Shown: positions 32,457-62,420, numbered from the stretch's first letter. The stretch is DNA of 64,000 nt from an uncultured Candidatus Saccharibacteria bacterium (GCA_964501135.1 CAZCRI010000005.1:14771-78770); one strand, 5' to 3'. Notes: generated by a model from the letters alone, not told the origin. Translations and numbers: made by a program.

Positions 32457-33383
32457 TTATTTAGAAGCGTTTAGATACTCCTCTATAGCCGGAACAATCT
32501 GTTTCTTGCGCGATAAGACGCCTGGGCAATCTAGAATCGAATCTGTGGTAGTACCACCAAATGCAGCTTCTACAAGAGCTTTTTCGTCTTCGCCAACCAC
32601 TACAAAGTCACCCTTTTGCTCAAGAATATCAATAACGGCAAATAGAATATAATCGAGCTGATCGGCGCTCTTTTTTGTCGCGAGGGCTTCTAGAATCTCG
32701 GCCTTTCGCTCGAACACCACGGCCGGCAAAACTGTTTCCCAAACACCGATACCAACTTTTTTATCAGCAAGATTAAATACCTTATAGTCCTTGCCGATTA
32801 ATTCAGCGGTAGTCATAGCGGAAATATCTGACTTTGCGGCAAAAAGCTCCGTTGCTAGCTCATCAATGTTAACTCCAGTAATAGTTGCGAGTGCCGCCAC
32901 TACTTCCCTATCTCTATCTGTAGTCGTTGGCGAAGTAAGTTTGAGGGTATCGGAGATGACCCCGGAAAGCAGAATTCCAGCCACTTCTTTGCTTGGTGCT
33001 ACATTATGTTTTTCGTAGCTGCCATAAATAATTGTGGCCGTGGAACCAACCGGACGCATCGTCACCGAGATTGGACCGCTAGTTGCAAGCCCACCAAGCT
33101 TGTGGTGATCAAAAATACCAACGATTTGTTCTGTTTCCACGTTTCCGTGGATTTGATCACATTCGTTGTGATCAACGAGAACAACTGACTTCTCTCCAGA
33201 AGGAATTAAAGCAGGGACTGTGAATCCAAACTTCGTAAGTACCAGCAAAGTCTCCTTGTTTAAGTCACCAGCAACAGCCGCCTCAAAGTCTTTACCCATT
33301 GCCTTCTTTAGCTCCGCAAGTGCGACGGCAGAAACCACCGAATCTGTGTCTGGATTTGTATGTCCTACGATATAGGTTTTCAT
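32457..33383 (-). CDS. ppaC: family II (Mn-dependent, DHH-type) inorganic pyrophosphatase
   Basis: HTNPDTDSVVSAVA, VDHNE, FDHHK DHH motifs; 308 aa. Confidence 0.8.
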   Translation of the reverse strand: MKTYIVGHTNPDTDSVVSAVALAELKKAMGKDFEAAVAGDLNKETLLVLTKFGFTVPALIPSGEKSVVLVDHNECDQIHGNVETEQIVGIFDHHKLGGLATSGPISVTMRPVGSTATIIYGSYEKHNVAPSKEVAGILLSGVISDTLKLTSPTTTDRDREVVAALATITGVNIDELATELFAAKSDISAMTTAELIGKDYKVFNLADKKVGIGVWETVLPAVVFERKAEILEALATKKSADQLDYILFAVIDILEQKGDFVVVGEDEKALVEAAFGGTTTDSILDCPGVLSRKKQIVPAIEEYLNASK

Positions 33384-34138
33384 ATTTTCTCCCCTTTTCT
33401 TTCTTGAAATATCCGCTCAACCTCAGCGAGCTGCTCGGGTGTATTTACGCCAAGCGTTTCCTTGGCATTACAAGCTGTAAAAACCCGGATCTTACCACCT
33501 TCATGCTTTATTATACCAAGAACATCTGTAAGATAGTATTCACCCTGAGCATTACCGGTCCCAACACGGTGAAGCGCCTGGAATAATTTACCTGCATTAA
33601 AGGCATAAACACCGGTATTAACTTCTTTGACCAGCTTCTCTTCTGCAGTCGCATCTTTCTCCTCGACAATACGGTCCAGATGCCCCTCTGTATCTCGAAT
33701 AATCCGGCCGTAGGCATATGGATCATCCATCATGGCCGTAAGCACGGTAACGTCTGCCCCGGTCTCCAAATGATAGCTAAGAAGCTTCGTAATAGTCCCC
33801 GGGGAAATTAGAGGTGTATCCCCAGCAAGAACCACTACCGTAGCGTCCGGTTCAGAGATCAAACCCTCCGCCATTAATACCGCGTGTCCGGTACCCTTCT
33901 GTTCTTCTTGTAGAGCATAGCTAACTTTGTGATTAAGCTTCCCCTTTACATGATCAGCTCGGTGCCCAACCACGAGGATATTGTTGTCGATTCCTGCTTT
34001 TTCGGCAGCCAAAATCACATGACTCGCCATCGTGACACCGCCAACGGTATGAAGGACTTTCGGCAGGTCGGAACCCATCCGAGTACCTTTTCCTGCGGCT
34101 AGAATAATTGAATATATTTTCTTCATTTTGCTCTCCAA
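33380..34138 (-). CDS. sugar-1-phosphate nucleotidyltransferase, GlmU N-terminal-domain-like (no left-handed beta-helix acetyltransferase domain)
   Basis: IILAAGKGTRMGSDLPKVLHTVGG (G-x-G-T-R NTP-transferase motif), 252 aa. Confidence 0.7.
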   Translation of the reverse strand: MESKMKKIYSIILAAGKGTRMGSDLPKVLHTVGGVTMASHVILAAEKAGIDNNILVVGHRADHVKGKLNHKVSYALQEEQKGTGHAVLMAEGLISEPDATVVVLAGDTPLISPGTITKLLSYHLETGADVTVLTAMMDDPYAYGRIIRDTEGHLDRIVEEKDATAEEKLVKEVNTGVYAFNAGKLFQALHRVGTGNAQGEYYLTDVLGIIKHEGGKIRVFTACNAKETLGVNTPEQLAEVERIFQERKGEKI

Positions 34139-34189
34139 ATAAAAATGGCCTTTCGGCCGCTTAATTCTACCAAATTAATCAATCAAATT

Positions 34190-35233
34190 CTAGGATTTAA
34201 CCTTCCGTTTGATCTCAATAAGTCCTAGCTTCCAGGCAACCGCGAAGAGGACAGCAGCAGTAATGGCAAAGGTAGTTACGGCCTGAGGGTTTGTCATGTG
34301 GGTAGAAAGAATCGCAATCACGCCAAGAATAATATTAACTCCGTAGATTATAAAGGCGGTTTGCTTATGGCTAAAGCCCTTGTGCATGATTCGGTGATGA
34401 AGATGAGCGCTATCCGGCTCAAAGGGGCTCTTTCCTAAAAGTAAACGACGAACGATTGCAAATCCGGTATCAAAGATTGGAATCGCGAGGACTAGCATTG
34501 GTAACAGCATCGAGAAGGCCGCCGCAACCTTAACCATACCCATGATAGAAACTACGGCCAGCGAATACCCTAGGAAGTTTGAGCCAGCATCTCCCATAAA
34601 CATCTTCCGATTGTGGTCACTCGTAAAGTTAGTTGGCAAGAATGCAAAGGCAGCTGCACCAATAGTAAATGCAAGGACTGCGGCGTCATATCGTCCAGAG
34701 AGAATTGCCACTATCCCCAAGGTCCAAGCCGAAATCCCCGAGACTCCGGCAGCAAGACCATCTAAGCCATCTAGGAAATTGATTGCATTTGCGACGCCCA
34801 CAATCCAGATAAAGGTAAAAGGCAAAGAGAGGAACCCTAGATTAATTAGTCCTCCATCTGCAGGATTACCAACAAACTCAATACGAACTCCAGAATATAT
34901 TACGATGAGCGCTGCTAGAATCTGCCCGAAAAATTTGGTAATTGGAGGCAAGTCAAAAATATCGTCTAGTAGTCCGATGCCGGTGATTACAGTACCGCCA
35001 AGCAAAAAGCCTAAAACCTCGGGGCTAGTGCGGTTAAAAAAGAGAATAGCGATTAAGAATCCAAAGAAAATTGCCACGCCTCCGCTCTGTGGGACGGCGA
35101 AGCTATGCTGCTTACGCTCATTCGGCAACGCCATAGCCCCAACCTTCTCAGAGAGACGACGGACAATCGGTAGAAGTATCATCGTAACTACCGCTGCAAA
35201 TAAGGGTAATATAAATAGTTTTGGAGTAATCAT
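34190..35233 (-). CDS. polyprenyl-phosphate N-acetylhexosamine-1-phosphate transferase (MraY/WecA/TagO family) - initiating enzyme
   Basis: ~10 TM helices, GLLDDIFDLPP, NAINFLDGLDGL motifs; 347 aa. Confidence 0.8.
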   Translation of the reverse strand: MITPKLFILPLFAAVVTMILLPIVRRLSEKVGAMALPNERKQHSFAVPQSGGVAIFFGFLIAILFFNRTSPEVLGFLLGGTVITGIGLLDDIFDLPPITKFFGQILAALIVIYSGVRIEFVGNPADGGLINLGFLSLPFTFIWIVGVANAINFLDGLDGLAAGVSGISAWTLGIVAILSGRYDAAVLAFTIGAAAFAFLPTNFTSDHNRKMFMGDAGSNFLGYSLAVVSIMGMVKVAAAFSMLLPMLVLAIPIFDTGFAIVRRLLLGKSPFEPDSAHLHHRIMHKGFSHKQTAFIIYGVNIILGVIAILSTHMTNPQAVTTFAITAAVLFAVAWKLGLIEIKRKVKS

Positions 35234-35275
35234 CTTCGAGAATTATCTTACCACAACCAGAAGTAATTGAGGATA

Positions 35276-36355
35276 TTAAAATTTAGTCGCAGCTTTAGAA
35301 TAGACGTCTTCAATTTGTTTAATCCATGACTTAATACTAAATCTACGGATGGCATCTTCACGAGCATTTATACCGTAAACTGCCAGATTTTCGTGGCTAT
35401 TAATAGCGAGGTCCATAACAGCGGCAATAGATGCCGGAGACATCCCCTTTGAAATTAGTCCTGTCTCACCGTCTTTGATAAGTTCCGGCAAACTACCTGC
35501 GGGTGTTATTATTATTGGTTTTCCGGCATACATCGCTTCCGCAACGGTTATTCCGAACCCCTCCTCTAAAGAAGGCTGAATATAGATATCTACTTCAGAC
35601 AATGCTTTCGCTACGTCTGTCGTAAACCCTTTTAAGAATACCTTTTCTTCCAAGTGATATCTTTTGATTAACGCCTCCAGTTCGTCCCTCTCGTCACCTT
35701 CACCCCAGATGTATACCTTGAATTCATCTTCTCTTAAAAGACTTGCTGCTTCAATCAGCCCATGATAGCCCTTCTTATAATGTAGCCTACCGAGACTGCC
35801 GAATACTAAAGGCAGATCAACTGATTTTGTTAGCAGAGGGATTTCTTTAACCCCGTTATATATTACTGTTATATGCGAGGGCTTCACGCCGAGCTTTATT
35901 GTTTCTCTTTCCAAGAATTCCGAAACAACTACATATTCCTGAGTTAACCTTCTCAAACTTACAAACGTCGCCCAAAAAAGCAAACGCTTCACCCCTTTAT
36001 AATCAAACTTATAGTCACTGTGGATTGTTATCAGATGAGGAATTTTTGCTTTTTTTGCCGCTAATCGTGAGAAGAAATTTGCTACTAGGCCTTGAGAGGT
36101 AACAAGTTCAAATCTATGGTCTAGCAGTTGTTTCGCAATCATATTTATAGAAAATAATTGATACCATTTGGTATTAAGCTCGACGACATTGTAGCCGCTA
36201 CTTGCCAGCACTTCAGTCAACTGCCACTTACCCATACTGACCAAGGTTAACTCAAGCTTTTTTGGGTCAATAGTTTCAAACATCTGTTTTATATATGTTT
36301 CGACACCACCCCAATTTGCAGCACCTGCATAAAATATTGCTATCTTTTTAGGCAT
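35276..36355 (-). CDS. GT-B glycosyltransferase (CAZy GT4-type, Glycos_transf_1)
   Basis: C-terminal EGFGITVAEAMYAGKPIIITPAGSLPELI; 359 aa. Confidence 0.75.
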   Translation of the reverse strand: MPKKIAIFYAGAANWGGVETYIKQMFETIDPKKLELTLVSMGKWQLTEVLASSGYNVVELNTKWYQLFSINMIAKQLLDHRFELVTSQGLVANFFSRLAAKKAKIPHLITIHSDYKFDYKGVKRLLFWATFVSLRRLTQEYVVVSEFLERETIKLGVKPSHITVIYNGVKEIPLLTKSVDLPLVFGSLGRLHYKKGYHGLIEAASLLREDEFKVYIWGEGDERDELEALIKRYHLEEKVFLKGFTTDVAKALSEVDIYIQPSLEEGFGITVAEAMYAGKPIIITPAGSLPELIKDGETGLISKGMSPASIAAVMDLAINSHENLAVYGINAREDAIRRFSIKSWIKQIEDVYSKAATKF

Positions 36356-37196
36356 TTGTAACTTTCCAGGAGACTATCCTAACTACAAATAACGGCACAG
36401 CATCCCAAACTCTTCGCACTCTGCCTCCCCCGGTTAGATCTTTATTCATAAAAAGACGCCACAACCACTCCAAGCCTAGGCGATTCAGCCAGATTGGCGC
36501 TTTTCTTTTAGGTGAGGCGACTCTATCAAACGTGCCTCCTTCGCCTACAGCTATTTTGACCGTTTCCAACTTATCAAGGTTCTCTTCTATCCAATACTCC
36601 TGCTTCGGAGATCCTAGCGCAACAAATAAAACCTTAGCCCCACTACTATTAATGTTGGCGACCACCTCTTCGGTATCAAAACCGTAACCACTGGTACTGC
36701 CGACTATCTTCAGACCCCTATGTGCCGTCTCTAACCTACGTATAGCCTGATCAAGTATCTCCTGCTGTGCACCAAAAATGTAGACTCCGGATTTTTCCTG
36801 TACAGCCGCTTCTACTATCAGCTCCAAGGCTTCAACCCCAGGAAAACTACAAGGGATAGGAGTCTCGATGAATTTTGGTTTTAGAACGATTAGCATCCCG
36901 CTATAAATCATCTGCAGTATACATTGGGCTACTCTTAGAGGCTTATTCTTTGTAGCAGGCATTGAAAGGTATTTGGCAGCCCAAAGCACCCCGCGTCCAT
37001 CCGCGATATTCAAACGACCGCTTTCAAGAAGTTTTTGGAAATTACTATCCGTCATTGCTCTAGATAGATACTCGGTGTTTATTTTAGCTATCACCAACTT
37101 ACCCGGAGAAACTAACTTTCTTCTAAGCGCTAGTTGAAACTGCTCACGATTATAGCAAGCTATTGGAATGGAAAATATTGAAAATTGATTATCCAT
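36348..37196 (-). CDS. WecG/TagA/CpsF-family (GT26) glycosyltransferase
   Basis: IADGRGVLWAAKYL and downstream conserved core typical of TagA/WecG; 282 aa. Confidence 0.7.
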   Translation of the reverse strand: MDNQFSIFSIPIACYNREQFQLALRRKLVSPGKLVIAKINTEYLSRAMTDSNFQKLLESGRLNIADGRGVLWAAKYLSMPATKNKPLRVAQCILQMIYSGMLIVLKPKFIETPIPCSFPGVEALELIVEAAVQEKSGVYIFGAQQEILDQAIRRLETAHRGLKIVGSTSGYGFDTEEVVANINSSGAKVLFVALGSPKQEYWIEENLDKLETVKIAVGEGGTFDRVASPKRKAPIWLNRLGLEWLWRLFMNKDLTGGGRVRRVWDAVPLFVVRIVSWKVTNA

Positions 37197-37278
37197 CTAT
37201 GTCGTTCCCATCTTATCCCAACAAAACTTACTTATAGTGCCGATTGCTGTGAGCCTTTTTATCACGATTTATTCCCGC

Positions 37279-38469
37279 TTATTGCCACTTATAATCGATA
37301 TCGCAAATCCCTGTGCTCTTCTTGTCTCCAACGACGGAAAACCCTTTCGCTTCAATTATTGCATGTATCCGGTCGGACTCACGCGGTCCCATCAACGTAA
37401 CGTTTAGGTGGTAATTCCCCGGAGCAAGAGGCAATTTGGACAGGTTTAGCTCGATACTTATGCTACCTTCGGCTTTAGCAACGTACTTCATACCGCTATA
37501 GAAGGTATTTGTATCAAAACAATTTACTTCGTCCTTAAAGATACCAACAGCCGCATTCAAGACTTCCTCTTGGTGATTAGGATTATAGCAATCCATAACA
37601 ATCCTGATTGTATCTCCTACCGTAATGGGTCCTGAAACCTCATCTGATCCCTTGAGTATCTTCACACTCTTTATCCTTGGGTAATCAGAGTTCCGACCTT
37701 CTAACTCCCCGGCCTTAACAACTTCGGTAGGTTTATTGTTCAATTCCTCATATGCATTGGTAACAGATTCTGGGTCTCCCCCAGCTGTAATTCTTCCTTC
37801 ATTGATCAGGATAACTTTATTACAGAAACGATTAACGGCCGACATATTATGCGAAACAAAAACTATCGTTCTCCCTTCTTTCTTTAGTCGAACAAAGACT
37901 TCGTCGCATTTCCTCTGAAAATTTGTGTCTCCAACAGCCAAAACTTCGTCCAGAAGAATGATTGGGGCATGAGCGTGAATTGCGACAGAAAAAGCCAATC
38001 TCACTTGCATCCCGCTAGAGTAATTCTTTAGTCTTTGGTCCATAAAATTTAAAAGTTCTGCAAATGATACTATCTCATCATAGCGCGCTTCGATTTCTTT
38101 CTGAGACAAGCCCAAAATTGCACCATTTAAGAAAACATTTTCTCTTCCTGTCAGTTCCGGATTAAAGCCTACTCCGAGCTCGAGAAATGGACTTATCTTG
38201 CCGTTAATCTTTAGGCTACCGGAGTCAAAAGTATAGATACCGGCAAGTATTTTCAAAAGGGTACTTTTACCGCTGCCGTTTTTGCCCACAATCCCGAAGA
38301 AATCACCCTCGTAGATATCAAAACTTACGCCCTTAAGCACATTAAATTCGGTATAGCTCTTCTTCTTGAAAAAGCTGACAACTGCCTGCTTCATAGAGGT
38401 GTGCTTTTCGTGCGGGATCCGAAATGTCTTTTTTATATCCTTTGCAGAAATCACTACATTATGCCCCAT
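37279..38469 (-). CDS. ABC transporter ATP-binding protein, TagH/Wzt-type polysaccharide/teichoic-acid exporter with extra C-terminal domain
   Basis: Walker A GKNGSGKSTLLK, signature YSSGMQVRLAFSVA, Walker B ILLDEV; 396 aa with ~150-aa C-terminal extension. Confidence 0.85.
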   Translation of the reverse strand: MGHNVVISAKDIKKTFRIPHEKHTSMKQAVVSFFKKKSYTEFNVLKGVSFDIYEGDFFGIVGKNGSGKSTLLKILAGIYTFDSGSLKINGKISPFLELGVGFNPELTGRENVFLNGAILGLSQKEIEARYDEIVSFAELLNFMDQRLKNYSSGMQVRLAFSVAIHAHAPIILLDEVLAVGDTNFQRKCDEVFVRLKKEGRTIVFVSHNMSAVNRFCNKVILINEGRITAGGDPESVTNAYEELNNKPTEVVKAGELEGRNSDYPRIKSVKILKGSDEVSGPITVGDTIRIVMDCYNPNHQEEVLNAAVGIFKDEVNCFDTNTFYSGMKYVAKAEGSISIELNLSKLPLAPGNYHLNVTLMGPRESDRIHAIIEAKGFSVVGDKKSTGICDIDYKWQ

Positions 38470-39260
38470 TACACATCCTCCGCAAACTTCGCTGCCATTT
38501 TTTCAAACAGAAAATACCCTGAAACGAAAATTATAATAGGCAATAAGTAGGGAATTATTGCCAACCATGAGGATTGATAAATCGAAGATACCGTAACGGT
38601 CTTGGTTGAGATAATTAAATATCTAAAATCTTGAAGAATCTGTGCAATTGGATTAAGCATCAATATTCTTCGATAACTTTCCGGTAAAGCCATTGGAGAG
38701 TACAGAATTGGCGTTGCATAAAACAGGGCCTGCATTGCAACTTCCCAAATATGAGAAATGTCCCTGAATTTAACGTATAAGGAACTTAGGATAAGCCCTA
38801 CTCCTAAAACAAAAATATATAACTCTATCATAACTAATGGTACTAGAAGTACATTCCATGTCAGTGGCACTCTATTGGCAACCATAAATACGAAAACAAT
38901 TACCAAATTTGCCAAAAATGTCAAAAACGCAGTCATGCTGTTTGAAATAATAAGCACCGCTCGAGGAAAGTATACCTTCCGGATAAGATCCCCCTTCCCA
39001 ACAATAGATAGGAGACATGAGATCGATGTCTCGAGGAAAAATGTCCAGACCACTATTCCCAAAAGCAAATAAACAGGATAGTAAGGGATACCATTGCCCA
39101 GCTTAAACACCCGCGTAAAGACAAAGTACATCACAGTAAAGAGCATCAATGGCTTTACGAGTGACCAAAGATACCCCAAAACTGAACCTTGATACTTCAG
39201 CTTGAAGTCGGTAAGAGAAATCGTTTTTATTAGATTAAAATATTTAAATACATCAAACAT
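38469..39260 (-). CDS. ABC-2 type exporter permease (TagG/Wzm-like)
   Basis: 263 aa, 6 TM, start overlaps the ATPase gene stop (ATGA). Confidence 0.8.
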   Translation of the reverse strand: MFDVFKYFNLIKTISLTDFKLKYQGSVLGYLWSLVKPLMLFTVMYFVFTRVFKLGNGIPYYPVYLLLGIVVWTFFLETSISCLLSIVGKGDLIRKVYFPRAVLIISNSMTAFLTFLANLVIVFVFMVANRVPLTWNVLLVPLVMIELYIFVLGVGLILSSLYVKFRDISHIWEVAMQALFYATPILYSPMALPESYRRILMLNPIAQILQDFRYLIISTKTVTVSSIYQSSWLAIIPYLLPIIIFVSGYFLFEKMAAKFAEDV

Positions 39261-40344
39261 TGCGTTTACTCACAGACAGGTACAGATTATAGTACATATC
39301 GGCCACTTTTTCTATGTTAAATTGAGATTTTGCAATGTTGTAACTTGATTGCTGAAAAGCCGCAAAATCACCCTCGACTATCCTTTTACCGGCAGCTGCA
39401 ATCGCTTCAGCATCGCCATACTCCACAAAATAGCCATTCTTTCCCTCGTTTACCATCTCTGGTATAGCGCCGGTTGCGGTTGCAATTATCGGCTTACTCG
39501 CAGCTATTGCCTCCAAGACTGCCATAGAGAACCCCTCTGATTCGGATGGCATTACGAAGATATCACCTTCGGAAAGCGCCGTTGGGACGTCTTTCACATA
39601 CCCTTTAAAATCAACAAAATTATAACCTTTTGTGCCAACCATTTTTTCGAGAGCAGGCCTATACCAGCCCTCGCCATAGACATTAAACTTCATTTTCGGG
39701 TAGGTGCCCACGAGTTGTGAAAGTCCTTCGATGGCATATTGCACTCCCTTCATGTCGATCAGCCTTCCAATGTACATGAACACGGGGCTCTTTCGGTCAA
39801 ATACCCGGGAGGCGTTTTCATAGCTTTCAATACAAATCGCATTTGGAATTACCTCAATTTTGTCGGCTGGTAGCGCATAGTAAGTAGAAAGGTGCTTTGC
39901 GACCACCTTGGAAACAGCTACTGCTTTCGTTAAATATCTATTTAAAAATTTCTGCTTCCTGCCAGGAAACGTGATGCAATCATGGGAGGTTGTGACCACT
40001 GGTTTCCCCAATAGACCGCCGAGTACCTTTGAGAAATCTTCACCGACGGACAAGTGACCATGTATTACATCAATATCTAAATTTTTTACATATAGCCACA
40101 GCCTGAACCTAAAGTAGGTTTCAAAACGATGAAAAAACCTTCGAAACAAATGATAATTAAACTTTCTATAATTTATAGGAAGTTTTAGAAATTCGCTTTC
40201 CAATTCCCCGTGACCTTCAAGTGAAATCAGATAAATTTCAATGTCATCTCGGTGCGATAGCTCAGTAAGTATGTTTAAAAGAACTCTTTCGGCACCACCC
40301 ACACCAAGATTGTTAATAATATGAAGTACTTTAACTTTACTCAT
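39253..40344 (-). CDS. GT-B glycosyltransferase (GT4-type)
   Basis: ESEGFSMAVLEAIAASKPIIATATGAIPEMV; 363 aa. Confidence 0.8.
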   Translation of the reverse strand: MSKVKVLHIINNLGVGGAERVLLNILTELSHRDDIEIYLISLEGHGELESEFLKLPINYRKFNYHLFRRFFHRFETYFRFRLWLYVKNLDIDVIHGHLSVGEDFSKVLGGLLGKPVVTTSHDCITFPGRKQKFLNRYLTKAVAVSKVVAKHLSTYYALPADKIEVIPNAICIESYENASRVFDRKSPVFMYIGRLIDMKGVQYAIEGLSQLVGTYPKMKFNVYGEGWYRPALEKMVGTKGYNFVDFKGYVKDVPTALSEGDIFVMPSESEGFSMAVLEAIAASKPIIATATGAIPEMVNEGKNGYFVEYGDAEAIAAAGKRIVEGDFAAFQQSSYNIAKSQFNIEKVADMYYNLYLSVSKRNV

Positions 40345-42890: not shown

Positions 42891-42894
42891 TTCT

Positions 42895-53512: not shown

Positions 53513-53513
53513 A

Positions 53514-53888
53514 ATGCTAGAAGTAATTGTCTTAACTATTCTATTCTCTATCTCGACCGTAATTTCGATCCTACTACTTGGAAGCCGCGCAATCATTGGT
53601 GGGGAGATGAATTTTGTCCGTATCGTACAGATCTTATTTAGTTGGCAATTTATCGTCGGAGCAATATTCGCGTTTGCCTCAAGAATGATATTTATGCTCA
53701 TCAACAGCGCCCTTTATAAGATGCCAGCGTTATCTAGTAGCTCAACAACTATCACTACCCTAATAACAACTGTTTCTCTAATTTTCGTGATTATTGCAAA
53801 CTATCTATTTTTGCACGAAAAAATCTCACTCATCCAAGGAGTTGGGGCCCTCGTAATACTTCTGGGTATTTTTCTAATTACGAAATAG
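53514..53888 (+). CDS. small 4-TM membrane protein, GtrA/ArnE-like (candidate lipid-linked sugar translocase subunit)
   Basis: 124 aa, four TM helices, ATG overlaps the preceding stop. Confidence 0.4.
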   Translation: MLEVIVLTILFSISTVISILLLGSRAIIGGEMNFVRIVQILFSWQFIVGAIFAFASRMIFMLINSALYKMPALSSSSTTITTLITTVSLIFVIIANYLFLHEKISLIQGVGALVILLGIFLITK

Positions 53889-53890
53889 CC

Positions 53891-55907: not shown

Positions 55908-56792
55908 TTAATTTTCTTCAGGCGTATCGTGTCTAACTATCGGCTTATTTACCCTATACCTTCCTGCTTTTATATCTTCTAGTCCCTTTGCTTCTGAAGC
56001 TACTGTCCTTTGGTATTCAGGCAATTCGGCGACCTTATCCAAATAGCTCTCAAAACGCTTGCTCATAGCCCTCATAACGTCATCTGCGGCAACAAAAGAG
56101 ACTTCTCCACCCTTTGCCTGGAAATAGCTATAAACCTCTCTCAAGAGCTCGTCTTCAACAATTTCCGGAAGGCGTTCATACATTTCTCTCATACGTGGAA
56201 TATGGTATGAGTTTGTAACAACTGCCAGGTGGTGCCAGTCTTTCTCTACTGCAAGCTTCACCATCTCAATGACTTCGGTTATAGTACTGATTGATTTTTC
56301 TTCATAAACAATTCTATTTGAGTCAACACCTCTAGCGATTAGCTCTTCGGCAATAACTGCCGCGTGGGTAGGTTCATCGTCAAAAACCTTACTTGTTGCG
56401 ACGATTGGGATTTCCGGGTAGATATTTGCGATTTCTGTAGTTGCAATTATTCTTGGCTTGCTACCCGTAACATGTCCTGTATCGGTTTTTTGATCAAATG
56501 CGGTGCTCCCGTAATAGTCCCCCCTGGGGTCTGTTTTCTTTGCGATTCCCCCGCTCATGGAGAAAACCACATCAGGTGTAGCTCCTTCGCTGAACCCGTT
56601 GGTGACAATACCCCTGATCTTCTTCTCTCTGGCAGTATCGAGTGCTTCTCCTGTCTCTGCATCGCCCTCTATCTCGGCCAAGACCTCGACGTCAGTCTCC
56701 GCTCTTTCATTTTCTCCGTGTGTCTGCCCGTTCTCTGGGAAAGAAGATATACCAGATTCTCCGATGGGTCCCCCGTGTCCTGTTTCTGCCAT
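55908..56792 (-). CDS. DUF218 (SanA/YdcF/ElyC-like) domain protein with acidic Gly-rich N-terminal extension
   Basis: HLAVVTNSYHIPRMREMYER matches the DUF218 core; 294 aa. Confidence 0.6.
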   Translation of the reverse strand: MAETGHGGPIGESGISSFPENGQTHGENERAETDVEVLAEIEGDAETGEALDTAREKKIRGIVTNGFSEGATPDVVFSMSGGIAKKTDPRGDYYGSTAFDQKTDTGHVTGSKPRIIATTEIANIYPEIPIVATSKVFDDEPTHAAVIAEELIARGVDSNRIVYEEKSISTITEVIEMVKLAVEKDWHHLAVVTNSYHIPRMREMYERLPEIVEDELLREVYSYFQAKGGEVSFVAADDVMRAMSKRFESYLDKVAELPEYQRTVASEAKGLEDIKAGRYRVNKPIVRHDTPEEN

Positions 56793-56816: not shown

Positions 56817-57167
56817 TTATTGCTTCTTTTCGAGGTCTGATATTCTCTTCTCAAGCAAGGCTTGTTTTTGCGTTAGTACAATTACCCTATCCGTTTGATG
56901 GGAAACAATAACCGAAAGCATGAGTGTGAGCAAAAGTAGCCCAAGTATGGCTGCCAAGAAGACCATTGTCGGTGGATACTGAATCCCCACAAAGTGAGAT
57001 GCCCATGTTATCAGGGGCACATCTAGGAATCCGATTGGCATCGCTAAGACAATAACCAACCATAAAATCGCGTATTTTTCTCGCAGGTGATTCTTTTTCA
57101 GTAACCAGATAACAGTTCCGAGCAAAACAACACATACCGTTGCGGTTAGAAGGTAGTAATTCTGCAT
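56817..57167 (-). CDS. DUF2304-family small membrane protein (commonly paired with GtrB-like GT2)
   Basis: 116 aa, 3 TM + C-terminal coiled-coil (LTQKQALLEKRISDLEKKQ); sits 1 nt after the GT2 gene. Confidence 0.5.
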   Translation of the reverse strand: MQNYYLLTATVCVVLLGTVIWLLKKNHLREKYAILWLVIVLAMPIGFLDVPLITWASHFVGIQYPPTMVFLAAILGLLLLTLMLSVIVSHQTDRVIVLTQKQALLEKRISDLEKKQ

Positions 57168-57168
57168 T

Positions 57169-57864
57169 TTATCCTCTTAATTTCTGCATAAGCATTGAGC
57201 TTATAACTTTTACCATATAATAGACCGACTTAAGGGGGGTAATAGATGACTTTCCTCCCTGTCTTTCGTGCATTTTAACGGGTGTCTCAGAAACTTTAAG
57301 TCCATGGTTCTTTAGATACACAATTACTTCTGGCTCTGGATAGTCGCTAGGGTAGTACTTGGTGTAAAGTTCTATCACTTTCCGGTCTGCCAGTCTGAAC
57401 CCAGAGGTAGCGTCCGTTATCTTCTGCCCGGTCAGTAAGTACGAGGTAAGAGCAAAAATATTTATTCCAATCCTTCGAGCGAATGAAGACCTAAAACTTC
57501 GTTCCCCCATAAACCGAGAGCCTATGACAAGATTTGCCCCTGTTTCTTGTTGCGCCTGAACTAGGCGTTTAATTTCTTTTGGCTCATGCTGGCCATCGCC
57601 GTCAACTTGAACTGCAAAGTCATAGCCATTATCGCGAGCGTACTTATAGCCAGTTTGCATGGCACCACCAATCCCTAGATTTACAGGGAGGCACAAATGA
57701 CTAATCCCGGATTCTAGAAGCACCTGCTCGGTCTTGTCGGTGGAGCAGTCATTTACAACCACAGTATCATATGCGCTATCTGCTGCACTGATCGAAGTAG
57801 CAACCTTTGCAATTGACATCTGCTCATTGTAAGCCGGTACTATAACCAATATTCGCTTATCCAT
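57169..57864 (-). CDS. GT2 polyprenyl-phosphate glycosyltransferase (GtrB/DPM1-like)
   Basis: ILVIVPAYNEQMSIAKV...VVNDCSTDKTEQ...DGDGQHEP GT-A DxD-type motifs; 231 aa, no TM tail. Confidence 0.85.
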   Translation of the reverse strand: MDKRILVIVPAYNEQMSIAKVATSISAADSAYDTVVVNDCSTDKTEQVLLESGISHLCLPVNLGIGGAMQTGYKYARDNGYDFAVQVDGDGQHEPKEIKRLVQAQQETGANLVIGSRFMGERSFRSSFARRIGINIFALTSYLLTGQKITDATSGFRLADRKVIELYTKYYPSDYPEPEVIVYLKNHGLKVSETPVKMHERQGGKSSITPLKSVYYMVKVISSMLMQKLRG

Positions 57865-59413
57865 TTATCCCCCTTCGGAACTGATTAATCCTGTTTCTCG
57901 ATTTATTGAAAATCAAGGAGCCCCAATATTCTAGGTATCCGAGGCCTCCCACTGCTCCGTAGGCAACCAAGGGTATTACTATAACCCTGTATCGTGGTTG
58001 TGACTCCACTAATAGTAGCACAAGAGCCATCAGTGTAGTAAAGAATACAATAAAAACATTATCGGCACTTTCATCTCTCTCTTTAAGCATTCTTAAGATA
58101 TTCATACTGTAAAGAAAAGAAATTGCGAGAAAAAACGCTTTCGATAAATTCTTCACAACATCCTGATCCAAGAATGGTGGAAGCTTAGGCAGAGTGTAGA
58201 ATTCCTTACTATATAAAGACATGTTATTTATGGGGTCGTCATTTGACCACATCATATTGAACTTGTCCAAGAACAATTTAGGATACCCTTGTTGTTTAGC
58301 GATATTTTCTTCCAAGAGACTGATAAACCTTGCGTCTTCCCTCTTGTAGCTACCATCGGTTAGGGTTCCTTCCAGAGCCTCCTTGCTTAGTCTTTCATAA
58401 TAGGGATAGTAATAATTGTAGGTAATCAAACCATCTCCCCTGGGGTTAAGCCCCGTTGCCAAAGTATAGGCAAGTATACTCTTATTTACTGGACCCCGTG
58501 CATAGAACCCAAGTAACGCGTATATCGGTAATGGTACCAGCATAAACACAATAAAGAATGCGCCGATGACAGGTAAAAACAACTTGAGTTTATTCTCTAC
58601 AATAAGCTTTCTTAATACGATTATAATAAAAATTGGAACTAAAATTATGGCTGTTTGTTTGAATAAATTTGAAAGAGCTAGAACTAATGCAAGCACCAAA
58701 ACCTCGAGTATGAGTACTTTTGTCTGGGCACTTCTCTGTATTAGAAACAGCAGAAGTACTGCACAACTGATAAGCCCAATGATTAACGAGTCTGTCCCGG
58801 GAAAATTGGAATAGAGAATATAGGTTGGGTATAAAGCCAAAATAAATATTAAGGGCGAGACAAGAGACTTCTTCCCTTTTATCTCAAGCAGAATTGAGAA
58901 CAACACCGACGGTAATGCTATCGCAACTAGTCCTAGTAGTTTGACTAGTGCCACTTTGGACCCAAAAAATTTGAATGCTACCAGTAATAATAGACCGAAG
59001 ATCCCCCAGTGACTAAAGATTAGGGCATGCGGGGTAACCGAGGGGCCGCTTTGCAGCCAGTGTTTAGCATATTCGAAAGAGTACAGAGGCTCGACAACCA
59101 AGGGGGTCTTCAGGACAAATATTATATAACTACATACTGCTAGTCCAATGGCTGCCATTAAGAAAATTAGAACAACCTTAATGGGGGGGCTGATAATCTT
59201 CGTGAGAACCAGCAGAATTAACACCACAACAACAGCAAAAACAAAAGACATATATGACTTATTCACAGCAAGGTATACAACCTGTGAAAGCACGATGCAA
59301 AAAGACAAAACAAACCCACCCAATAAGCCAACCTTAACCAACACACCCAGCAGTCGTAAGGCGTGGCTCGAAAGACTATGCTTTTTTGTTTTTTGCATTA
59401 TATATCCTATCAA
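57857..59413 (-). CDS. GT-C fold membrane glycosyltransferase (ArnT/PMT, GT39/GT83-like)
   Basis: ~12 TM, 518 aa, directly upstream of and coupled to the GtrB-like gene; annotated start overlaps the upstream GT2 gene, so the true start may be internal. Confidence 0.5.
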   Translation of the reverse strand: MIGYIMQKTKKHSLSSHALRLLGVLVKVGLLGGFVLSFCIVLSQVVYLAVNKSYMSFVFAVVVVLILLVLTKIISPPIKVVLIFLMAAIGLAVCSYIIFVLKTPLVVEPLYSFEYAKHWLQSGPSVTPHALIFSHWGIFGLLLLVAFKFFGSKVALVKLLGLVAIALPSVLFSILLEIKGKKSLVSPLIFILALYPTYILYSNFPGTDSLIIGLISCAVLLLFLIQRSAQTKVLILEVLVLALVLALSNLFKQTAIILVPIFIIIVLRKLIVENKLKLFLPVIGAFFIVFMLVPLPIYALLGFYARGPVNKSILAYTLATGLNPRGDGLITYNYYYPYYERLSKEALEGTLTDGSYKREDARFISLLEENIAKQQGYPKLFLDKFNMMWSNDDPINNMSLYSKEFYTLPKLPPFLDQDVVKNLSKAFFLAISFLYSMNILRMLKERDESADNVFIVFFTTLMALVLLLVESQPRYRVIVIPLVAYGAVGGLGYLEYWGSLIFNKSRNRINQFRRGING

Positions 59414-60305
59414 TAATATACCTCGGCCTGTTGAGGGCCTCTTTATATATTTTATCTATATAGATTCCTACCAACCCAAGGGAAACCAGAATCAAGCTGA
59501 TACAGAGCCCGAACAATGGAAGAAGCAGCTTGTCACTTATTAGAACGCGGCCTGTGGCCATTTGTGCTATTGACAGTGCAAATAGAACCAAGGGCACAAC
59601 CGCAAAATAATATGCCAGAGATAGGGGCAAAGAAGAGAAACTCACAATACCAGATACCGCCAACTTAATCATCTTCTTCAGCGGATATTTAGTTTCACCA
59701 GCCATCCTTTTTGATCGATCAAACAATACGTTGTCATTTCTGAATCCCACAAACGCAACAAGGCCGCGAACAAAGGGGTCTTTTTCCTTCATACCTCTTA
59801 GGGCCATTACAACTTTTTTATCAATAAGGCGAAAATCCCCGACATCGCTCGGTATATCTACGGTTGTTAAGGTCCTAAGAATTCGATAAAACCAATAGGC
59901 TGTGAACTTTTTAAAGGCCCCGTCTTGTCTTTTCTTCCTTTTAGCATAAACAACCTCCCCACCCTTTTCCCACGATTTGATTAAGTCCAAGATCACCACA
60001 GGTGGGTCTTGAAGGTCTGCATCCATTGTCACCACACAATCACCATTCGCATAATCCATGCCTGCGGTAATCGCATATTGATGTCCAAAATTCCTTGAAA
60101 AGTGAATGACGGTAATTCGGTTATCTTTATTAGCAAGGTTTTCTAAAATATCTCCGGAACCATCACTGCTGCCGTCGTTAACGTATATGATTTCGAGTCT
60201 GTATTTTTCTTCGAGAAACCGGAGGCTGGATGACAGTTCTTTGTGGAATCCCAAGATGCCTTCTTTTTCGTTATAGACAGGCGCCACTATGGACACTAAT
60301 TTCAT
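59376..60305 (-). CDS. GT2 polyprenyl-phosphate sugar synthase (ArnC/GtrB-like) with C-terminal 2-TM tail
   Basis: VSIVAPVYNEKEGI...VNDGSSDGS...TMDADLQDPP; C-terminal hydrophobic helices; 309 aa. Confidence 0.85.
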   Translation of the reverse strand: MKLVSIVAPVYNEKEGILGFHKELSSSLRFLEEKYRLEIIYVNDGSSDGSGDILENLANKDNRITVIHFSRNFGHQYAITAGMDYANGDCVVTMDADLQDPPVVILDLIKSWEKGGEVVYAKRKKRQDGAFKKFTAYWFYRILRTLTTVDIPSDVGDFRLIDKKVVMALRGMKEKDPFVRGLVAFVGFRNDNVLFDRSKRMAGETKYPLKKMIKLAVSGIVSFSSLPLSLAYYFAVVPLVLFALSIAQMATGRVLISDKLLLPLFGLCISLILVSLGLVGIYIDKIYKEALNRPRYIIDRIYNAKNKKA

Positions 60306-61288
60306 ACTCGCTCCTTATGTTGCTTCTTTTCCCACTCCCAAGCTGTCTTAATTATTGTCTCCATATTACTATATTTCCTGTCCCAATCCATCAGCCCCCT
60401 TGCCTTTTCTGAAGAGGCAATAGAAATAACAATATCGCCAGCTCTCCGTTTACCCTCTCTAATAAGGAAACCCGAGCCAGTGACCTGCTTCGTAATTTCG
60501 GCAATTTCCCTCACGGTAAAACCCTCCTCGCTACCGAGGTTAACTATGACAGGCAGCCCTCCATTTTCGAGGTACTGTAGTGCTTTTACGTGCGCACTGG
60601 CCAAGTCACTAACATGAATCATGTCGCGAACACAGGTGCCGTCCTTGGTGTCATAGTCGGTGCCCAAGATAGTGAAATCCTTTTCCTCAATTGCTGCCCG
60701 CATTAGGATTGAGATCAGATCCTCTCCTTTTTCGTGATTGTTCCCCAATTCACCCTCGGGATCCGCACCGCCAGCGTTGAAATATCTAAGCGAAACGTGC
60801 TTCATAGGGTGAGCCGCTGAGCTGTCTTGGAGAATTTGTTCAAACATAAGTTTTGACCAGCCGTAAGGATTAGTTGGTATGGTTGGAAAATCCTCGGTAA
60901 TAGGACTACCTTGGACATCTCCGTAAACTGCGGCTGAGGAAGAAAAGATGAGGTTACTTACCTCTCCCTGAACACACATCTTAAGCAGTTGGATGCTCTT
61001 AGACACATTGTTTTCATAGTATTTTTCAGGGTCGGCAACAGATTCAGGAGCTATTTTTGATGCCGCAAAATGAATCACTGTATCAACTCCTCGCTCAAAA
61101 GTTGAGGACAATAGATCCACGTCGGCAAAGTCTCCCTTTAGGAAATCCACACCACGTGGGATTCGGTTCTGGTCGCCGGCTGACAAATCGTCAACAACTA
61201 CAATATCTTTGCGCCCCGCTTTGATTAGTTCCTTTATCGTATGGCTACCTATATACCCAGCCCCGCCAGTTACTAGTATTATACCCAT
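60302..61288 (-). CDS. galE: UDP-glucose 4-epimerase
   Basis: MGIILVTGGAGYIGSH, YxxxK SDR catalytic pattern; 328 aa. Confidence 0.85.
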   Translation of the reverse strand: MGIILVTGGAGYIGSHTIKELIKAGRKDIVVVDDLSAGDQNRIPRGVDFLKGDFADVDLLSSTFERGVDTVIHFAASKIAPESVADPEKYYENNVSKSIQLLKMCVQGEVSNLIFSSSAAVYGDVQGSPITEDFPTIPTNPYGWSKLMFEQILQDSSAAHPMKHVSLRYFNAGGADPEGELGNNHEKGEDLISILMRAAIEEKDFTILGTDYDTKDGTCVRDMIHVSDLASAHVKALQYLENGGLPVIVNLGSEEGFTVREIAEITKQVTGSGFLIREGKRRAGDIVISIASSEKARGLMDWDRKYSNMETIIKTAWEWEKKQHKERV

Positions 61289-61564
61289 TTAGGCCTGCAA
61301 CTCTATCGCTGCGTCTGAGCACATATTTTCACAAATTCTACACATTACACAATTGCCAATTTCACATTTTATAGTTGGTTCACCTTTAGCATTGAGCTGT
61401 TCATTGTCCCACTCCAAAGCATTTTGGGGGCACATATCTACACAAAGTCCGCAGCCTTCGCACTTATTCACCAGCTGTACCCAACTAATCTTTTCATTTG
61501 TATATGTCTTTTTTATGTCGCTCATAGCTCCCCTTTCCGGGCACAAAAAATTGTTAGTTTTCAA
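61289..61564 (-). CDS. 2x[4Fe-4S] ferredoxin-like small protein
   Basis: CEGCGLCVDMCP and CVMCRICENMCS cluster-binding motifs; 91 aa. Confidence 0.7.
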   Translation of the reverse strand: MKTNNFLCPERGAMSDIKKTYTNEKISWVQLVNKCEGCGLCVDMCPQNALEWDNEQLNAKGEPTIKCEIGNCVMCRICENMCSDAAIELQA

Positions 61565-62420
61565 GAGTTCTTAGATATTTACGGAATTCTTGCCCAAGTT
61601 TGTCGTGCTGGAGCGCCATATGAACCGTCGCCTTCAAAAAGCCCAGCTTATCGCCTGTATCAAAACGCTCATCAGTAAGCTTGTAGGCGTGCATTCCATC
61701 GTTTTTTATTAGCTCTAAGATACCGTCTGTAAGCTGGATTTCGTCACCTGCCCCCGGTTTAGTCTCTTCGAGGTAGCTGAATATCTCTGGCTTTAGTACA
61801 TAGCGCCCAATAACCGCGAAGTTCGATGGGGCATCGGCTCTTGCCGGTTTTTCGATAATTCCCTTTAGGGCAAACGAAGATTCCTTACTCCCATCAACTG
61901 GGTCCACGATTCCGTAAGAGGAAACCTTGTCCTCTGCCACTTCCTCAGTCAGAATCACTGACTTACCCGTCTGTTCGAAAACCTCAATCATTTGATCGAT
62001 ACAAGGCTTGGCGCCGACCACCAAATCGTCAGGTAGAATAACCGCAAAGGGCTCTTCGCCTATAAAATCCTTGGCACGAAGCACCGCGTGACCGAGACCT
62101 AGAGGCTCTTTTTGTCGAATGTATACGATATTTGCCATGTCCGAGATGCTCTTAACCTCGGCTAGTACATCGAGCTTCCCTTTGAGCTCAAGGGTATGTT
62201 CTAGCTCATAAGAGTGGTCGAAATAGTCCTCAATGGAGTTTTTACCACGACCAGTGATGATAATAATGTCGGTAATTCCAGATTTTACCGCCTCTTCGAC
62301 AGCATAATGGATTGCAGGTCGGTCAATAATCGGTAGCATTTCCTTGGGCATTGATTTGGTGGCTGGTAAGAACCGGGTTCCGAAACCCGCAGCTGGAATA
62401 ACGGCTTTGCGTATCTTCAA
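61554..62420 (-). CDS. galU: UTP--glucose-1-phosphate uridylyltransferase
   Basis: KAVIPAAGFGTRFLPATKSMPKEMLPIIDRP; 288 aa. Confidence 0.9.
   Translation of the reverse strand: MKIRKAVIPAAGFGTRFLPATKSMPKEMLPIIDRPAIHYAVEEAVKSGITDIIIITGRGKNSIEDYFDHSYELEHTLELKGKLDVLAEVKSISDMANIVYIRQKEPLGLGHAVLRAKDFIGEEPFAVILPDDLVVGAKPCIDQMIEVFEQTGKSVILTEEVAEDKVSSYGIVDPVDGSKESSFALKGIIEKPARADAPSNFAVIGRYVLKPEIFSYLEETKPGAGDEIQLTDGILELIKNDGMHAYKLTDERFDTGDKLGFLKATVHMALQHDKLGQEFRKYLRTLEN

Follow-up and report, generated by a model that had tools for sequence, protein, structure and literature searches.

This locus raises the question of what a dense run of glycosyltransferase, sugar-nucleotide and export genes builds at the surface of its bacterium, and whether all of these genes serve one product. 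The run lies in a 64,000-nucleotide stretch of DNA from an uncultured Candidatus Saccharibacteria bacterium (GCA_964501135.1 CAZCRI010000005.1:14771-78770), which we refer to below, at its full length, as the window. The cluster spans window positions 33380-62420 (~29 kb), from the stop of a gene for the N-terminal half of GlmU (GlmU-N) to the start of galU, and it contains 28 tightly packed genes that we number g2-g29. A first-pass annotation had described it as one pathway that makes UDP-N-acetyl-L-fucosamine (UDP-L-FucNAc), assembles a wall-teichoic-acid-like or lipoglycan polymer, exports it through an ATP-binding cassette (ABC) transporter and decorates it after export.

We assigned protein families with Pfam and NCBIfam hidden Markov models (HMMs), sequence matching against the PDB and direct protein comparison, and under these methods, together with a structural model and fold search for g25, every family assignment of the first-pass annotation held. 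That annotation had left g2, g11-g15, g20 and g28 undescribed. Decoration after ABC export is the natural reading of the gene set, and from these data we conclude that the cluster serves to build, export and decorate a sugar polymer of the cell surface, which probably includes the rare sugar L-FucNAc. The genes do not demonstrably make up a single linear pathway, and the region that holds them combines modules, mosaic-like, in a locus that is hypervariable. With moderate confidence, we read the cluster as a hypervariable envelope glycan locus of a monoderm bacterium with a small genome, probably a Saccharibacterium, that directs an ABC transporter-dependent heteropolysaccharide decorated outside the membrane. 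The small genome, which had been proposed earlier, is plausible on indirect grounds, namely the very compact gene packing and the presence of a relative of one cluster protein, the LtaS-like g21, on a 721-kb contig.

The individual enzyme families and the overall scheme are already known from streptococci, lactococci and mycobacteria. The new details are the particular combination of genes, the very small family to which one membrane glycosyltransferase (g25) belongs, and an orphan module (g11-g15); we found no such locus described for Saccharibacteria in the searchable literature.

Predicted L-FucNAc synthesis, priming and export

The first-pass annotation had proposed a fnlA-fnlB-fnlC gene set and had named a PseB/PglF-type 4,6-dehydratase as the alternative to FnlA. 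We observed that g16 (48974-50002, plus strand), assigned as the UDP-N-acetylglucosamine (UDP-GlcNAc) 4,6-dehydratase/5-epimerase FnlA, scored 559 bits with the FnlA model TIGR04130 (below its equivalog cut-off of 730) compared with 338 bits for PseB, and that it is 70.6% identical over its full length to FnlA of E. coli O172; we therefore rejected a PseB/PglF identity for this protein. On the same strand follow g17 (49999-51114), a reductase of the FnlB/WbjC/Cap5F type (NF047837, 417.8 bits over its full length; 43.8% identical, full length, to O172 WbjC), and g18 (51144-52271), an FnlC-type non-hydrolysing UDP-N-acetylhexosamine (UDP-HexNAc) 2-epimerase (PF02350, 298 bits; TIGR00236 for WecB, 241.6 bits, above the cut-off of 210; 55.1% identical to O172 FnlC). 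The three genes are contiguous and in the O172 order. The order fnlA-fnlB-fnlC followed by a glycosyltransferase of family 4 (GT4) is the same in three E. coli O-antigen loci, and when E. coli genomes were searched at the DNA level, 468 of them carried a related locus. The combination of FnlC with a WbjC-type reductase favours L-FucNAc over N-acetyl-L-pneumosamine (L-PneNAc), N-acetyl-L-quinovosamine (L-QuiNAc) and N-acetyl-L-rhamnosamine (L-RhaNAc), and the predicted product of g16-g18 is probably UDP-L-FucNAc.

Two further genes complete this plus-strand block. The first, g19 (52256-53512), encodes a GT4 enzyme of the WcaI/WbuB-like subfamily and is a candidate L-FucNAc transferase. It matches the WcaI-family model NF007640 over its full length (123 bits, below the cut-off of 276), and the same model is the best one for the GT4 enzymes that follow fnlC in the three E. 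coli loci (~85 bits, likewise below cut-off). Among the related loci that we describe below, L008 and L017 carry a g19 homologue in the same position with 70-78% identity. The second gene, g20 (53514-53888), encodes a 124-aa protein with four transmembrane (TM) segments, similar to the EamA/SMR families, and is a candidate flippase for sugars carried on undecaprenyl phosphate (Und-P). Its EamA score is 28.0 bits against a cut-off of 28.2, and ArnF matches only with an E-value of 0.21. A g20 homologue always follows the GT4 gene in L008 (89% identical), L017 (73%) and L018 (94%, partial).

Chain initiation is predicted to start with g3 (34190-35233), a WecA/TagO/GacO-type polyprenyl-phosphate GlcNAc-1-phosphate transferase with ten predicted TM segments. 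Its scores (PF00953, 127 bits; TIGR02380 for WecA, 171.7 bits, under a cut-off of 326) agree with the WecA/MraY-family transferase named by the first-pass annotation, as do those of g5 (36348-37196) with the TagA/WecG enzyme of family GT26 (TagA/WecG/CpsF; PF03808, 146 bits; TIGR00696, 109 bits, above the cut-off of 69; TarA model, 108 bits). These genes belong to a minus-strand block, g2-g9, which begins with g2 (33380-34138). The 252-aa product of g2 is the N-terminal, uridylyltransferase half of GlmU and is predicted to supply UDP-GlcNAc; it matches GlmU models across profile positions ~2-245 of ~450 only, the acetyltransferase domain is absent, and a close relative (L011, below) has the same arrangement in a protein of 248 aa. 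The g2 gene overlaps ppaC, the gene for a family II pyrophosphatase, by 4 bases.

Several GT4 enzymes had been predicted, and we found five transferases of the GT-B fold in the cluster. Besides g19, two are complete GT4 enzymes: g4 (35276-36355, minus strand; PF00534, 128 bits; PF13439, 71 bits) and g8 (39253-40344, minus strand; PF13692, 114 bits; PF13439, 76 bits). In the other two, only a C-terminal GT1 domain can be recognised. These are g9 (40337-41410, minus strand; PF00534, 33 bits, cut-off 26.4) and the 469-aa g10 (41481-42890, plus strand), where PF00534 covers residues 349-446 with 58.7 bits and the N-terminal ~340 aa are without family assignment.

The exporter is encoded by g6 (37279-38469, minus strand) and g7 (38469-39260, minus strand), and the C-terminal extension that had been noted on its ATPase is a carbohydrate-binding domain of the Wzt type. 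g6 scored 80 bits with ABC_tran and 46 bits with Wzt_C (above the cut-off of 30.4), and its residues 26-390 align to residues 22-385 of Aquifex aeolicus Wzt (8DKU, 231 bits; also 7K2T), while TagH structures match its nucleotide-binding domain only, with 165-178 bits. Among NCBIfam models, those for TagH rank highest (177-185 bits) and the mycobacterial galactan Wzt model comes third, close behind. The permease g7 is a Wzm-type ABC-2 protein (PF01061, 51.5 bits) with mycobacterial galactan Wzm/RfbD as its best NCBIfam model (63 bits). We rejected a Wzx/Wzy pathway, as no Wzx-family protein was found and an ABC exporter is present.

Predicted lipid-linked donors, membrane transferases and the LtaS-like protein

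The last strand block of the cluster, g21-g29, lies on the minus strand and holds two glycosyltransferases of family 2 (GT2), which the first-pass annotation had treated alike as parts of GtrA/GtrB/GtrC-type modification modules. The Gtr-like description suits g26 and its neighbour g25, and it does not suit g24 and g23, which resemble GacI/GacJ or PpgS/Rv3632. g26 (59376-60305) is a GtrB/ArnC/PgfS-type polyprenyl-phosphate sugar synthase (PF00535, 110 bits) anchored by two C-terminal TM segments (residues 228-246 and 261-279). Its best NCBIfam model is PgfS (225 bits), ArnC reaches 151 bits, and the GtrB structure 5EKP aligns over the full length with 215.6 bits. g24 (57169-57864; PF00535, 80.7 bits) is a soluble GT2 without predicted TM segments, of the PpgS/GacI type that makes polyprenyl-phosphate HexNAc; its best model is mycobacterial PpgS (104.6 bits, below cut-off), and it is 59-66% identical in four related loci.

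Directly beside g24 lies g23 (56817-57167), a small DUF2304 membrane protein of the GacJ/Rv3632 type (PF10066, 73.5 bits), and a DUF2304 gene always directly follows the GT2 gene in L008, L017, L018 and L019. In the GacI/GacJ and PpgS/Rv3632 pairs, the small membrane protein binds and stimulates the synthase (10.1101/180810; PMC3485146). By analogy with these pairs, g23 may be the activator partner of g24. The DUF218 protein g22 (55908-56792; SanA/YdcF-like; PF02698, 49 bits), which like DUF2304 had been recognised in the first-pass annotation, follows DUF2304 in L008 (80% identical) and L018 (72%) and is absent in L017.

The neighbour of g26, g25 (57857-59413), had been described as a GT-C membrane transferase. 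It had no direct HMM match in Pfam or NCBIfam, PDB sequence search gave nothing useful, and a word-indexed homologue search returned g25 itself only. An exhaustive search recovered 65 relatives among 1.84 billion representatives, and among the relatives that were aligned PMT_2 matched 37 of 55 and PMT 6 of 55. The AlphaFold model of g25, a protein with 14 predicted TM segments, has high confidence (pLDDT 92.9, pTM 0.92), and the top ten PDB matches found with Foldseek are all GT-C enzymes (STT3, ArnT, ALG3, AglB and Pmt4), with probability 1.00 and modest TM-scores of 0.31-0.46. An acidic residue, E108, occupies the near-invariant aspartate position of the family. Because of the transitive Pfam matches, the high-confidence model and the fold search, we assign g25 as a divergent PMT_2/ArnT-like glycosyltransferase with a predicted GT-C fold.

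Precursor genes lie at the head of this block. g27 (60302-61288) encodes a GalE-family UDP-hexose/HexNAc 4-epimerase (TIGR01179, 384 bits, cut-off 262), and g29 (61554-62420) encodes GalU, the UTP-glucose-1-phosphate uridylyltransferase (TIGR01099, 372.9 bits, cut-off 326.8), so that both the galE and the galU assignments exceed their equivalog cut-offs. A galE gene also stands first in the GT2-DUF2304 operons of L008, L018 and L019, with 72-74% identity. Between galE and galU, g28 (61289-61564) encodes a small 2x[4Fe-4S] ferredoxin (Fer4_7, 41.5 bits) with no evident role in the pathway.

At the other end of the block, g21 (53891-55774) encodes a phosphoglycerol transferase of the LtaS family, in which a TM domain at the N-terminus precedes an extracellular domain of the sulfatase fold. 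We observed 149 bits with PF00884 and 278 bits with the LtaS model, for which the cut-off is 970, and an LtaS_N domain is annotated on the identical protein in the protein collection. PDB matches to LtaS/LtaP reached 144-164 bits and the match to GacH 36 bits, on which ground we rejected a GacH-type identity. The alignment to 2W5Q and 2W8D preserves the motifs vESl, GGTSD, HG..FWNR, LTSHaPF and GDH, and with them the conserved catalytic positions E, T, H/W/R, H and DH. Aligned to S. aureus LtaS, these residues correspond to the metal ligands, the threonine nucleophile and the residues that bind glycerol phosphate, and the catalytic residues of g21 are intact.

Related loci, chromosomal setting and the orphan module

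To compare the cluster with its relatives, we recovered related contigs through homologues of g14, g25 and WecA and searched them with tblastn. In L008/L015, g14-g13-g12-g11-galE-GT2-DUF2304-DUF218 converges on EamA-GT4-fnlC-fnlB-fnlA with 47-92% identity, and LtaS, g25 and g26 are missing. L018 has the L008 layout with a g25-like GT-C gene inserted between galE and GT2. In L017, a GtrB-like GT2, a GT-C, a GT2 and a DUF2304 gene converge on EamA-GT4-fnlCBA. A counterpart of g26 is present in L017 (42% identical) and absent in L008 and L018, and relatives of g25 stand beside GT2 and DUF2304 in L017, L018 and L019. In L008/L015, L017 and L018 the block galE-(GT2)-(GT-C)-GT2-DUF2304-(DUF218), in which parentheses mark variable members, always converges on fnlABC-GT4-EamA. 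The constant neighbours are these two blocks, fnl-GT4-EamA and (galE)-GT2-DUF2304; the constant partner of the GT-C gene is GT2 with DUF2304, and g26, DUF218 and LtaS are variable.

L007 shares a different part of the cluster. It carries g15-g14-g13-g12-g11, three glycosyltransferase genes and Wzm/Wzt with 46-85% identity (Wzm 85%, g8 63%, g9 66%, g10 46%). In the place taken by TagA in the window, right behind Wzt, L007 encodes a polysaccharide pyruvyl transferase (PF04230; L007 positions 11278-11720), and pyruvylation in that strain is possible as a terminal modification or as a ligand for S-layer homology (SLH) domains. A contig of a Saccharibacteria metagenome-assembled genome (MAG) carries g14-, g11- and g24-like genes as well as the start of a Wzm, which is 83% identical across 59 aa; further matches to cluster proteins on the same contig are 24-32% identical. 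Along with the 721-kb contig of the g21 relative and the compact gene packing, these matches are indirect pointers to Saccharibacteria or to another lineage with a small genome.

A close relative is L011 (GCA_041738615.1, JBGSPL010000003.1), which we compared with window positions 32457-39260 and whose contig ends inside the locus. L011 shares the flank of the cluster, with an ATP synthase operon, rnpA, PpaC (82% identical), GlmU-N (84%) and WecA (95%). Past wecA, identity falls to 53% for the GT4 enzyme, 38% for TagA, 41% for Wzt and 49% for Wzm, and the gene content differs, including GT2 enzymes and a DUF2142 protein. Because identity breaks sharply right after wecA and the content changes there, the comparison points to a glycan locus that is hypervariable, in the manner of serotype loci, and keeps a constant site in the chromosome.

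Several features of the window bear on this setting. The genes rnpA-yidD (31516-32244, minus strand) and yidC-jag(KhpB) (62423-63741, minus strand) flank the glycan locus plus ppaC and glmU. These two pairs are normally adjacent near the replication origin, and their positions place the 29-kb locus inside the usual rnpA-yidC neighbourhood. The GC content of the cluster is 41.7%, compared with 46.9% in the 33 kb upstream. Its genes form five alternating strand blocks (g2-g9 minus, g10 plus, g11-g15 minus, g16-g20 plus, g21-g29 minus), often with intergenic gaps or overlaps of just a few bases. The convergent pairs g20/g21 (53888-53891) and g10/g11 (42890-42895) have spacers of 2 and 4 bp, which leave no room for intergenic terminators.

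The third block, g11-g15, consists of orphan genes, all on the minus strand. g11 (42895-44706) encodes a secreted protein with a signal peptide, an N-terminal domain of ~250 aa and three repeats of ~113 aa, of which repeats A and B are 49% identical; it had no Pfam, NCBIfam or PDB match and is kept in L007 (48% identical), L008 (66%) and L018 (62%). g12 (44703-45299) encodes a single-pass membrane protein with one predicted TM segment, a linker rich in serine and threonine (S/T; residues 56-100 have an S+T fraction of 0.29) and a small beta domain with a weak Gmad2 Ig-like match (E 0.0024), and is 47% identical in L008. g15 (48127-48825) encodes a 232-aa protein with two predicted TM segments and no Pfam or NCBIfam match, 69% identical to L007 across the portion present there.

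The remaining two orphans may be further transferases. The polytopic protein g13 (45339-46754) is DUF6020-like (27.2 bits, just under the cut-off of 28.3), a family on which a literature search gave no paper. An hhalign comparison with the GT-C family of g25 gave a probability of 91% for a match to that family's N-terminal core, in which TSDSF of g13 aligned with the family's loop motif SDF, and g13 is probably a GT-C-type transferase as judged from this profile match. It is 75% identical in L008 and 47% in L007, and a metagenome scan with g13 returned the already-known contig plus one distant match. g14 (46751-48127) encodes a 13-TM membrane protein with a loop motif, WDEFSYWG, that is invariant in six sequences, including proteins from Bacteroides and from a Caldisericia MAG. 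Neither g14 (Pfam, NCBIfam) nor its distant relatives (Pfam) had a family match, and a contig scan found only relatives with 24-26% identity, one of them in a Saccharibacteria MAG. A six-sequence g14 profile matched the GT-C family with 86% hhalign probability, but over just 68 columns, while the single sequence gave 1%; the AlphaFold model, built on a three-sequence alignment, is unusable (pLDDT 47.5). g14 is thus possibly GT-C-like, as far as the profile comparison indicates.

One could suppose that g11-g15 together form a new extracytoplasmic machine of Saccharibacteria-like bacteria for glycan assembly or surface-protein glycosylation, an idea that we hold as distinctly speculative and rather unlikely. 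If it were true, these genes would carry out steps that have no known gene here, by replacing a LytR-CpsA-Psr (LCP) ligase or Wzy in attachment or polymerisation, or by glycosylating a cell-surface layer protein, and they would contribute to the strain-specific surface identity of an episymbiont.

A proposed route and its rivals

In the route that we propose, GlmU-N, GalU and GalE would provide UDP-GlcNAc, UDP-glucose and their 4-epimers, and FnlA, FnlB and FnlC would convert UDP-GlcNAc to UDP-L-FucNAc. WecA (g3) would prime the chain by forming undecaprenyl-diphosphate-GlcNAc (Und-PP-GlcNAc), TagA/WecG (g5) would add the second sugar, and g4, g8, g9 and g10, together with g19 for L-FucNAc, would build the chain at the cytoplasmic face. 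Wzm/Wzt (g7/g6) would then export the finished chain, and the carbohydrate-binding domain of Wzt implies that a terminal feature of the chain is recognised. Lipid-linked donors would come from the soluble g24, activated by g23, and from the membrane-anchored g26; the EamA-like g20 is the candidate flippase of these Und-P-sugars. Outside the membrane, GT-C enzymes would move the sugars onto the exported polymer, with g25 assigned at the level of fold, g13 a probable and g14 a possible member of this group. g21 would either add glycerol phosphate to the polymer, as GacH does, or make a separate polymer like lipoteichoic acid.

The layout matches two known systems, the modification of the streptococcal group A carbohydrate (GAC) and that of mycobacterial arabinogalactan. 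With the cell wall polysaccharides rich in rhamnose (Rha-CWPS) of streptococci (GAC, gacA-L plus gacO; the S. mutans serotype c carbohydrate, SCC), the cluster shares WecA-type Und-PP-GlcNAc priming, assembly in the cytoplasm and ABC-2 export. With GAC it also shares a side chain added outside from Und-P-HexNAc by a GT2 with DUF2304 (GacI/GacJ) and a GT-C enzyme (GacL) (10.1101/180810) and, reportedly, a sulfatase-fold glycerol-phosphate transferase (GacH) in the locus (10.1101/337519). In contrast to GAC and SCC, the scanned window proteins include no Rml/GacA or rhamnosyltransferase families, and FnlABC is found instead; a TagA/WecG second-sugar enzyme, the carbohydrate-binding domain on the exporter ATPase, a second, GtrB-type synthase and extra GT-C-like proteins are present; and the sulfatase-fold enzyme is of the LtaS type (164 bits) rather than the GacH type (36) and is not conserved in the locus. 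With the galactosamine modification of mycobacterial arabinogalactan, the cluster shares a GT2 like PpgS (Rv3631) with a DUF2304 partner like Rv3632, an epimerase (galE1) in the operon and a GT-C transferase (Rv3779) (PMC3485146). The best model for the permease g7 also comes from a mycobacterial system, the Wzm/Wzt galactan exporter. The scores here are under the equivalog cut-offs, however, no galactofuranosyl or arabinosyl transferases were found, and both organism and backbone differ.

Three further systems share parts of the gene set. The UDP-L-FucNAc loci of E. coli (O172/O26-type), S. aureus (cap5/8 E-F-G) and P. aeruginosa O11 (wbjBCD) have the same three enzymes in the same order, then a GT4. 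The E. coli loci use Wzx/Wzy, whereas the window encodes an ABC exporter; the GT4 is distant, and where E. coli has the cupin gene wbuC, the window has the gene for the 4-TM EamA-like protein. The O-antigen ABC transporters of E. coli O9a and Aquifex (Wzm/Wzt) share a full-length Wzt including its C-terminal domain and an ABC-2 permease, but our locus has no recognisable terminator of the WbdD kinase/methyltransferase or 3-deoxy-D-manno-octulosonic acid (Kdo) transferase kind, and its organism probably has neither an outer membrane nor a WaaL-type ligase. The Gtr-type systems (GtrA/GtrB/GtrC; CsbB/YfhO; S. mutans Pgf) share a GtrB-like enzyme, here g26, with an adjacent GT-C-fold protein, here g25, yet no GtrA-family flippase matched in our case and the g25 family is very small, with the ~65 relatives given above.

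Several observations weigh against the route as we have drawn it. The FnlA, FnlB, WecA, LtaS, PpgS and PgfS models are the best for their proteins, but all of these scores fall below the NCBIfam equivalog cut-offs. Pfam found no chain-terminating enzyme family (methyltransferase, kinase, Kdo transferase) in the cluster proteins, the window proteins scanned include no second, MnaA-type 2-epimerase for the TagA donor, and no match to the GtrA (PF04138) or Wzx flippase families was found among the scanned proteins of the 64-kb window. No LCP ligase (LytR_cpsA_psr) was found in the cluster proteins or in the larger open reading frames (ORFs) scanned elsewhere in the window. As for g19, its place after fnlC and its broad subfamily agree with the WbuB-like transferase of the first-pass annotation, but close similarity does not, as it is 21% identical over 167 aa to the O172 WbuB-type enzyme. 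The modules recombine between loci and need not all serve one polymer. In addition, the tools identify the genes, and the chemistry is deduced from what the named families do, just as donors, acceptors, anchoring and the way the modules are coupled are inferred.

A separate point concerns g21. Its nearest homologues (34-38% identical) stand alone among unrelated genes in two other loci, an LtaS gene is absent from the DUF218/DUF2304-EamA junction in L008, L017 and L018, the GC content of g21, 37%, is the lowest in its neighbourhood, and 133 bp lie between g21 and the upstream gene. For these reasons, g21 looks like an accessory insertion rather than a constant member of the system. The LtaS-like protein of the first-pass annotation is therefore supported in its family and catalytic residues, but not as a conserved member of the pathway.

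The main rival to decoration of an exported polysaccharide is protein glycosylation, which we judge unlikely but deserving of serious weight. Under this hypothesis the pathways would be independent: the GT2/GT-C modules (g27-g26-g25, perhaps with g13/g14) would O-glycosylate S/T-rich surface proteins such as g12 and g11, and the polysaccharide would come from WecA-TagA-GT4-Wzm/Wzt and the fnl genes only. PgfS is the best NCBIfam model of g26, and epimerase, GT2 and GT-C genes are neighbours, an arrangement that is also reported for the pgfS-pgfM1-pgfE-pgfM2 operon (PMC5856776). A streptococcal GtrB with a GT-C enzyme (PgtC2) glycosylates S/T-rich disordered regions (PMC12041528). The g12 linker is 29% S/T, the secreted repeat protein g11 always accompanies g13/g14, relatives of g25 match the protein-mannosyltransferase families PMT_2 and PMT, and the modules recombine between loci. 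Against this, g26 falls far short of the 500-bit cut-off for PgfS, the acceptors of GtrB/ArnC-type enzymes include polysaccharide and lipid A as well as protein, and PMT_2 also covers ArnT-like lipid and glycan transferases. The modules consistently lie amid polysaccharide genes and converge on fnlABC-GT4, and GT2 enzymes with DUF2304 partners have so far been documented for polysaccharide decoration (GAC, 10.1101/180810; arabinogalactan, PMC3485146).

We also considered that L-FucNAc might be added outside the membrane, which seems to us improbable. In that case g24 and g23, fed by FnlABC, would make Und-P-L-FucNAc, g20 would flip it, g25 or g13 would transfer it as a side chain, and the GT4 g19 would use another donor. 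The fnlABC-GT4-EamA and GT2-DUF2304 blocks do converge in the window, L008/L015, L017 and L018, and the size and topology of g20 fit a flippase like ArnE/F, which flips Und-P-linked 4-amino-4-deoxy-L-arabinose (L-Ara4N). However, in the E. coli loci, too, fnlC is followed by a GT4 gene at this place, and the addition of L-FucNAc there is cytoplasmic; the EamA and ArnF scores of g20 are at or below threshold. The GalE that heads the GT2-DUF2304 operon, just as galE1 lies near ppgS in M. tuberculosis, favours UDP-N-acetylgalactosamine or UDP-GlcNAc as the donor.

A strict teichoic-acid system, in which WecA, TagA and the ABC transporter would make wall teichoic acid (WTA) and g21 would be a poly(glycerol-phosphate) lipoteichoic acid (LTA) synthase of the same envelope programme, is improbable: WecA, TagA and a TagH-like ATPase are WTA linkage-unit and export genes, and g21, with LtaS_N and all catalytic residues, is nearer to true LtaS than to GacH, but no TagB/TagF (PF04464), TagD/TarI/TarJ CDP-polyol genes or LCP ligase were found in the cluster or the scanned larger window ORFs, the carbohydrate-binding domain of the Wzt-type ATPase is a polysaccharide-exporter feature, FnlABC and the five GT-B enzymes speak for a polymer of sugars, and LtaS is unlinked to the cluster in relatives and scores far under its model cut-off. 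Of the earlier description as wall-teichoic-acid-like, the linkage-unit enzymes and the ABC-2 exporter stand, but the polyol-phosphate genes and the ligase are missing from the window; because of these absences among the proteins scanned, the predicted polymer would not be a true teichoic acid. We favour an exported heteropolysaccharide that is decorated outside the membrane.

Elsewhere in the window we made several observations that do not touch the cluster. A tRNA gene at 6692-7369 (minus strand) is split by a group I intron, whose RF00028 core lies at 6944..6748 (58.9 bits); the canonical 5' half starts at 7369, and the 3' half, which has the T-arm and CCA, reaches to about 6692. Removal of ~608 nt, with approximate splice sites, gave a 76-nt tRNA that ARAGORN identified as tRNA-Met with anticodon CAT, whereas in the unspliced DNA both ARAGORN and the Rfam tRNA model missed it. 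The tilS ORF (6940-8748, plus strand) has an N-terminal extension of 178 residues that overlaps the split tRNA and intron on the opposite strand. Because the PP-loop domain begins only at residue 179, the true tilS start is probably near 7400, and a tRNA(CAU) gene adjoining tilS is a suggestive pairing. A 1029-aa protein encoded at 18234-21323 (minus strand; GC ~40%), with an LCAT/alpha-beta-hydrolase domain and a weak Sortilin-Vps10 repeat match, may be a secreted lipase or acyltransferase. The ORF at 110-1171 (plus strand) matches only the C-terminal part of the NiFe hydrogenase large subunit (PF00374, profile positions 371-508) and represents a hydrogenase gene that is short or fragmentary, or else an ORF whose start is mis-set. 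No rRNA was found in the window.

Returning to the exported and decorated heteropolysaccharide, the locus yields gene sets that can be tested, namely those for L-FucNAc synthesis, for a GacI/GacJ-type donor synthase and for a GT-C enzyme supported by a structural model. The strain-variable region beside wecA could act as a serotype-like marker. If the organism is indeed a Saccharibacterium, its surface glycans may be what these ultrasmall episymbionts present to host bacteria, phages and the immune system.

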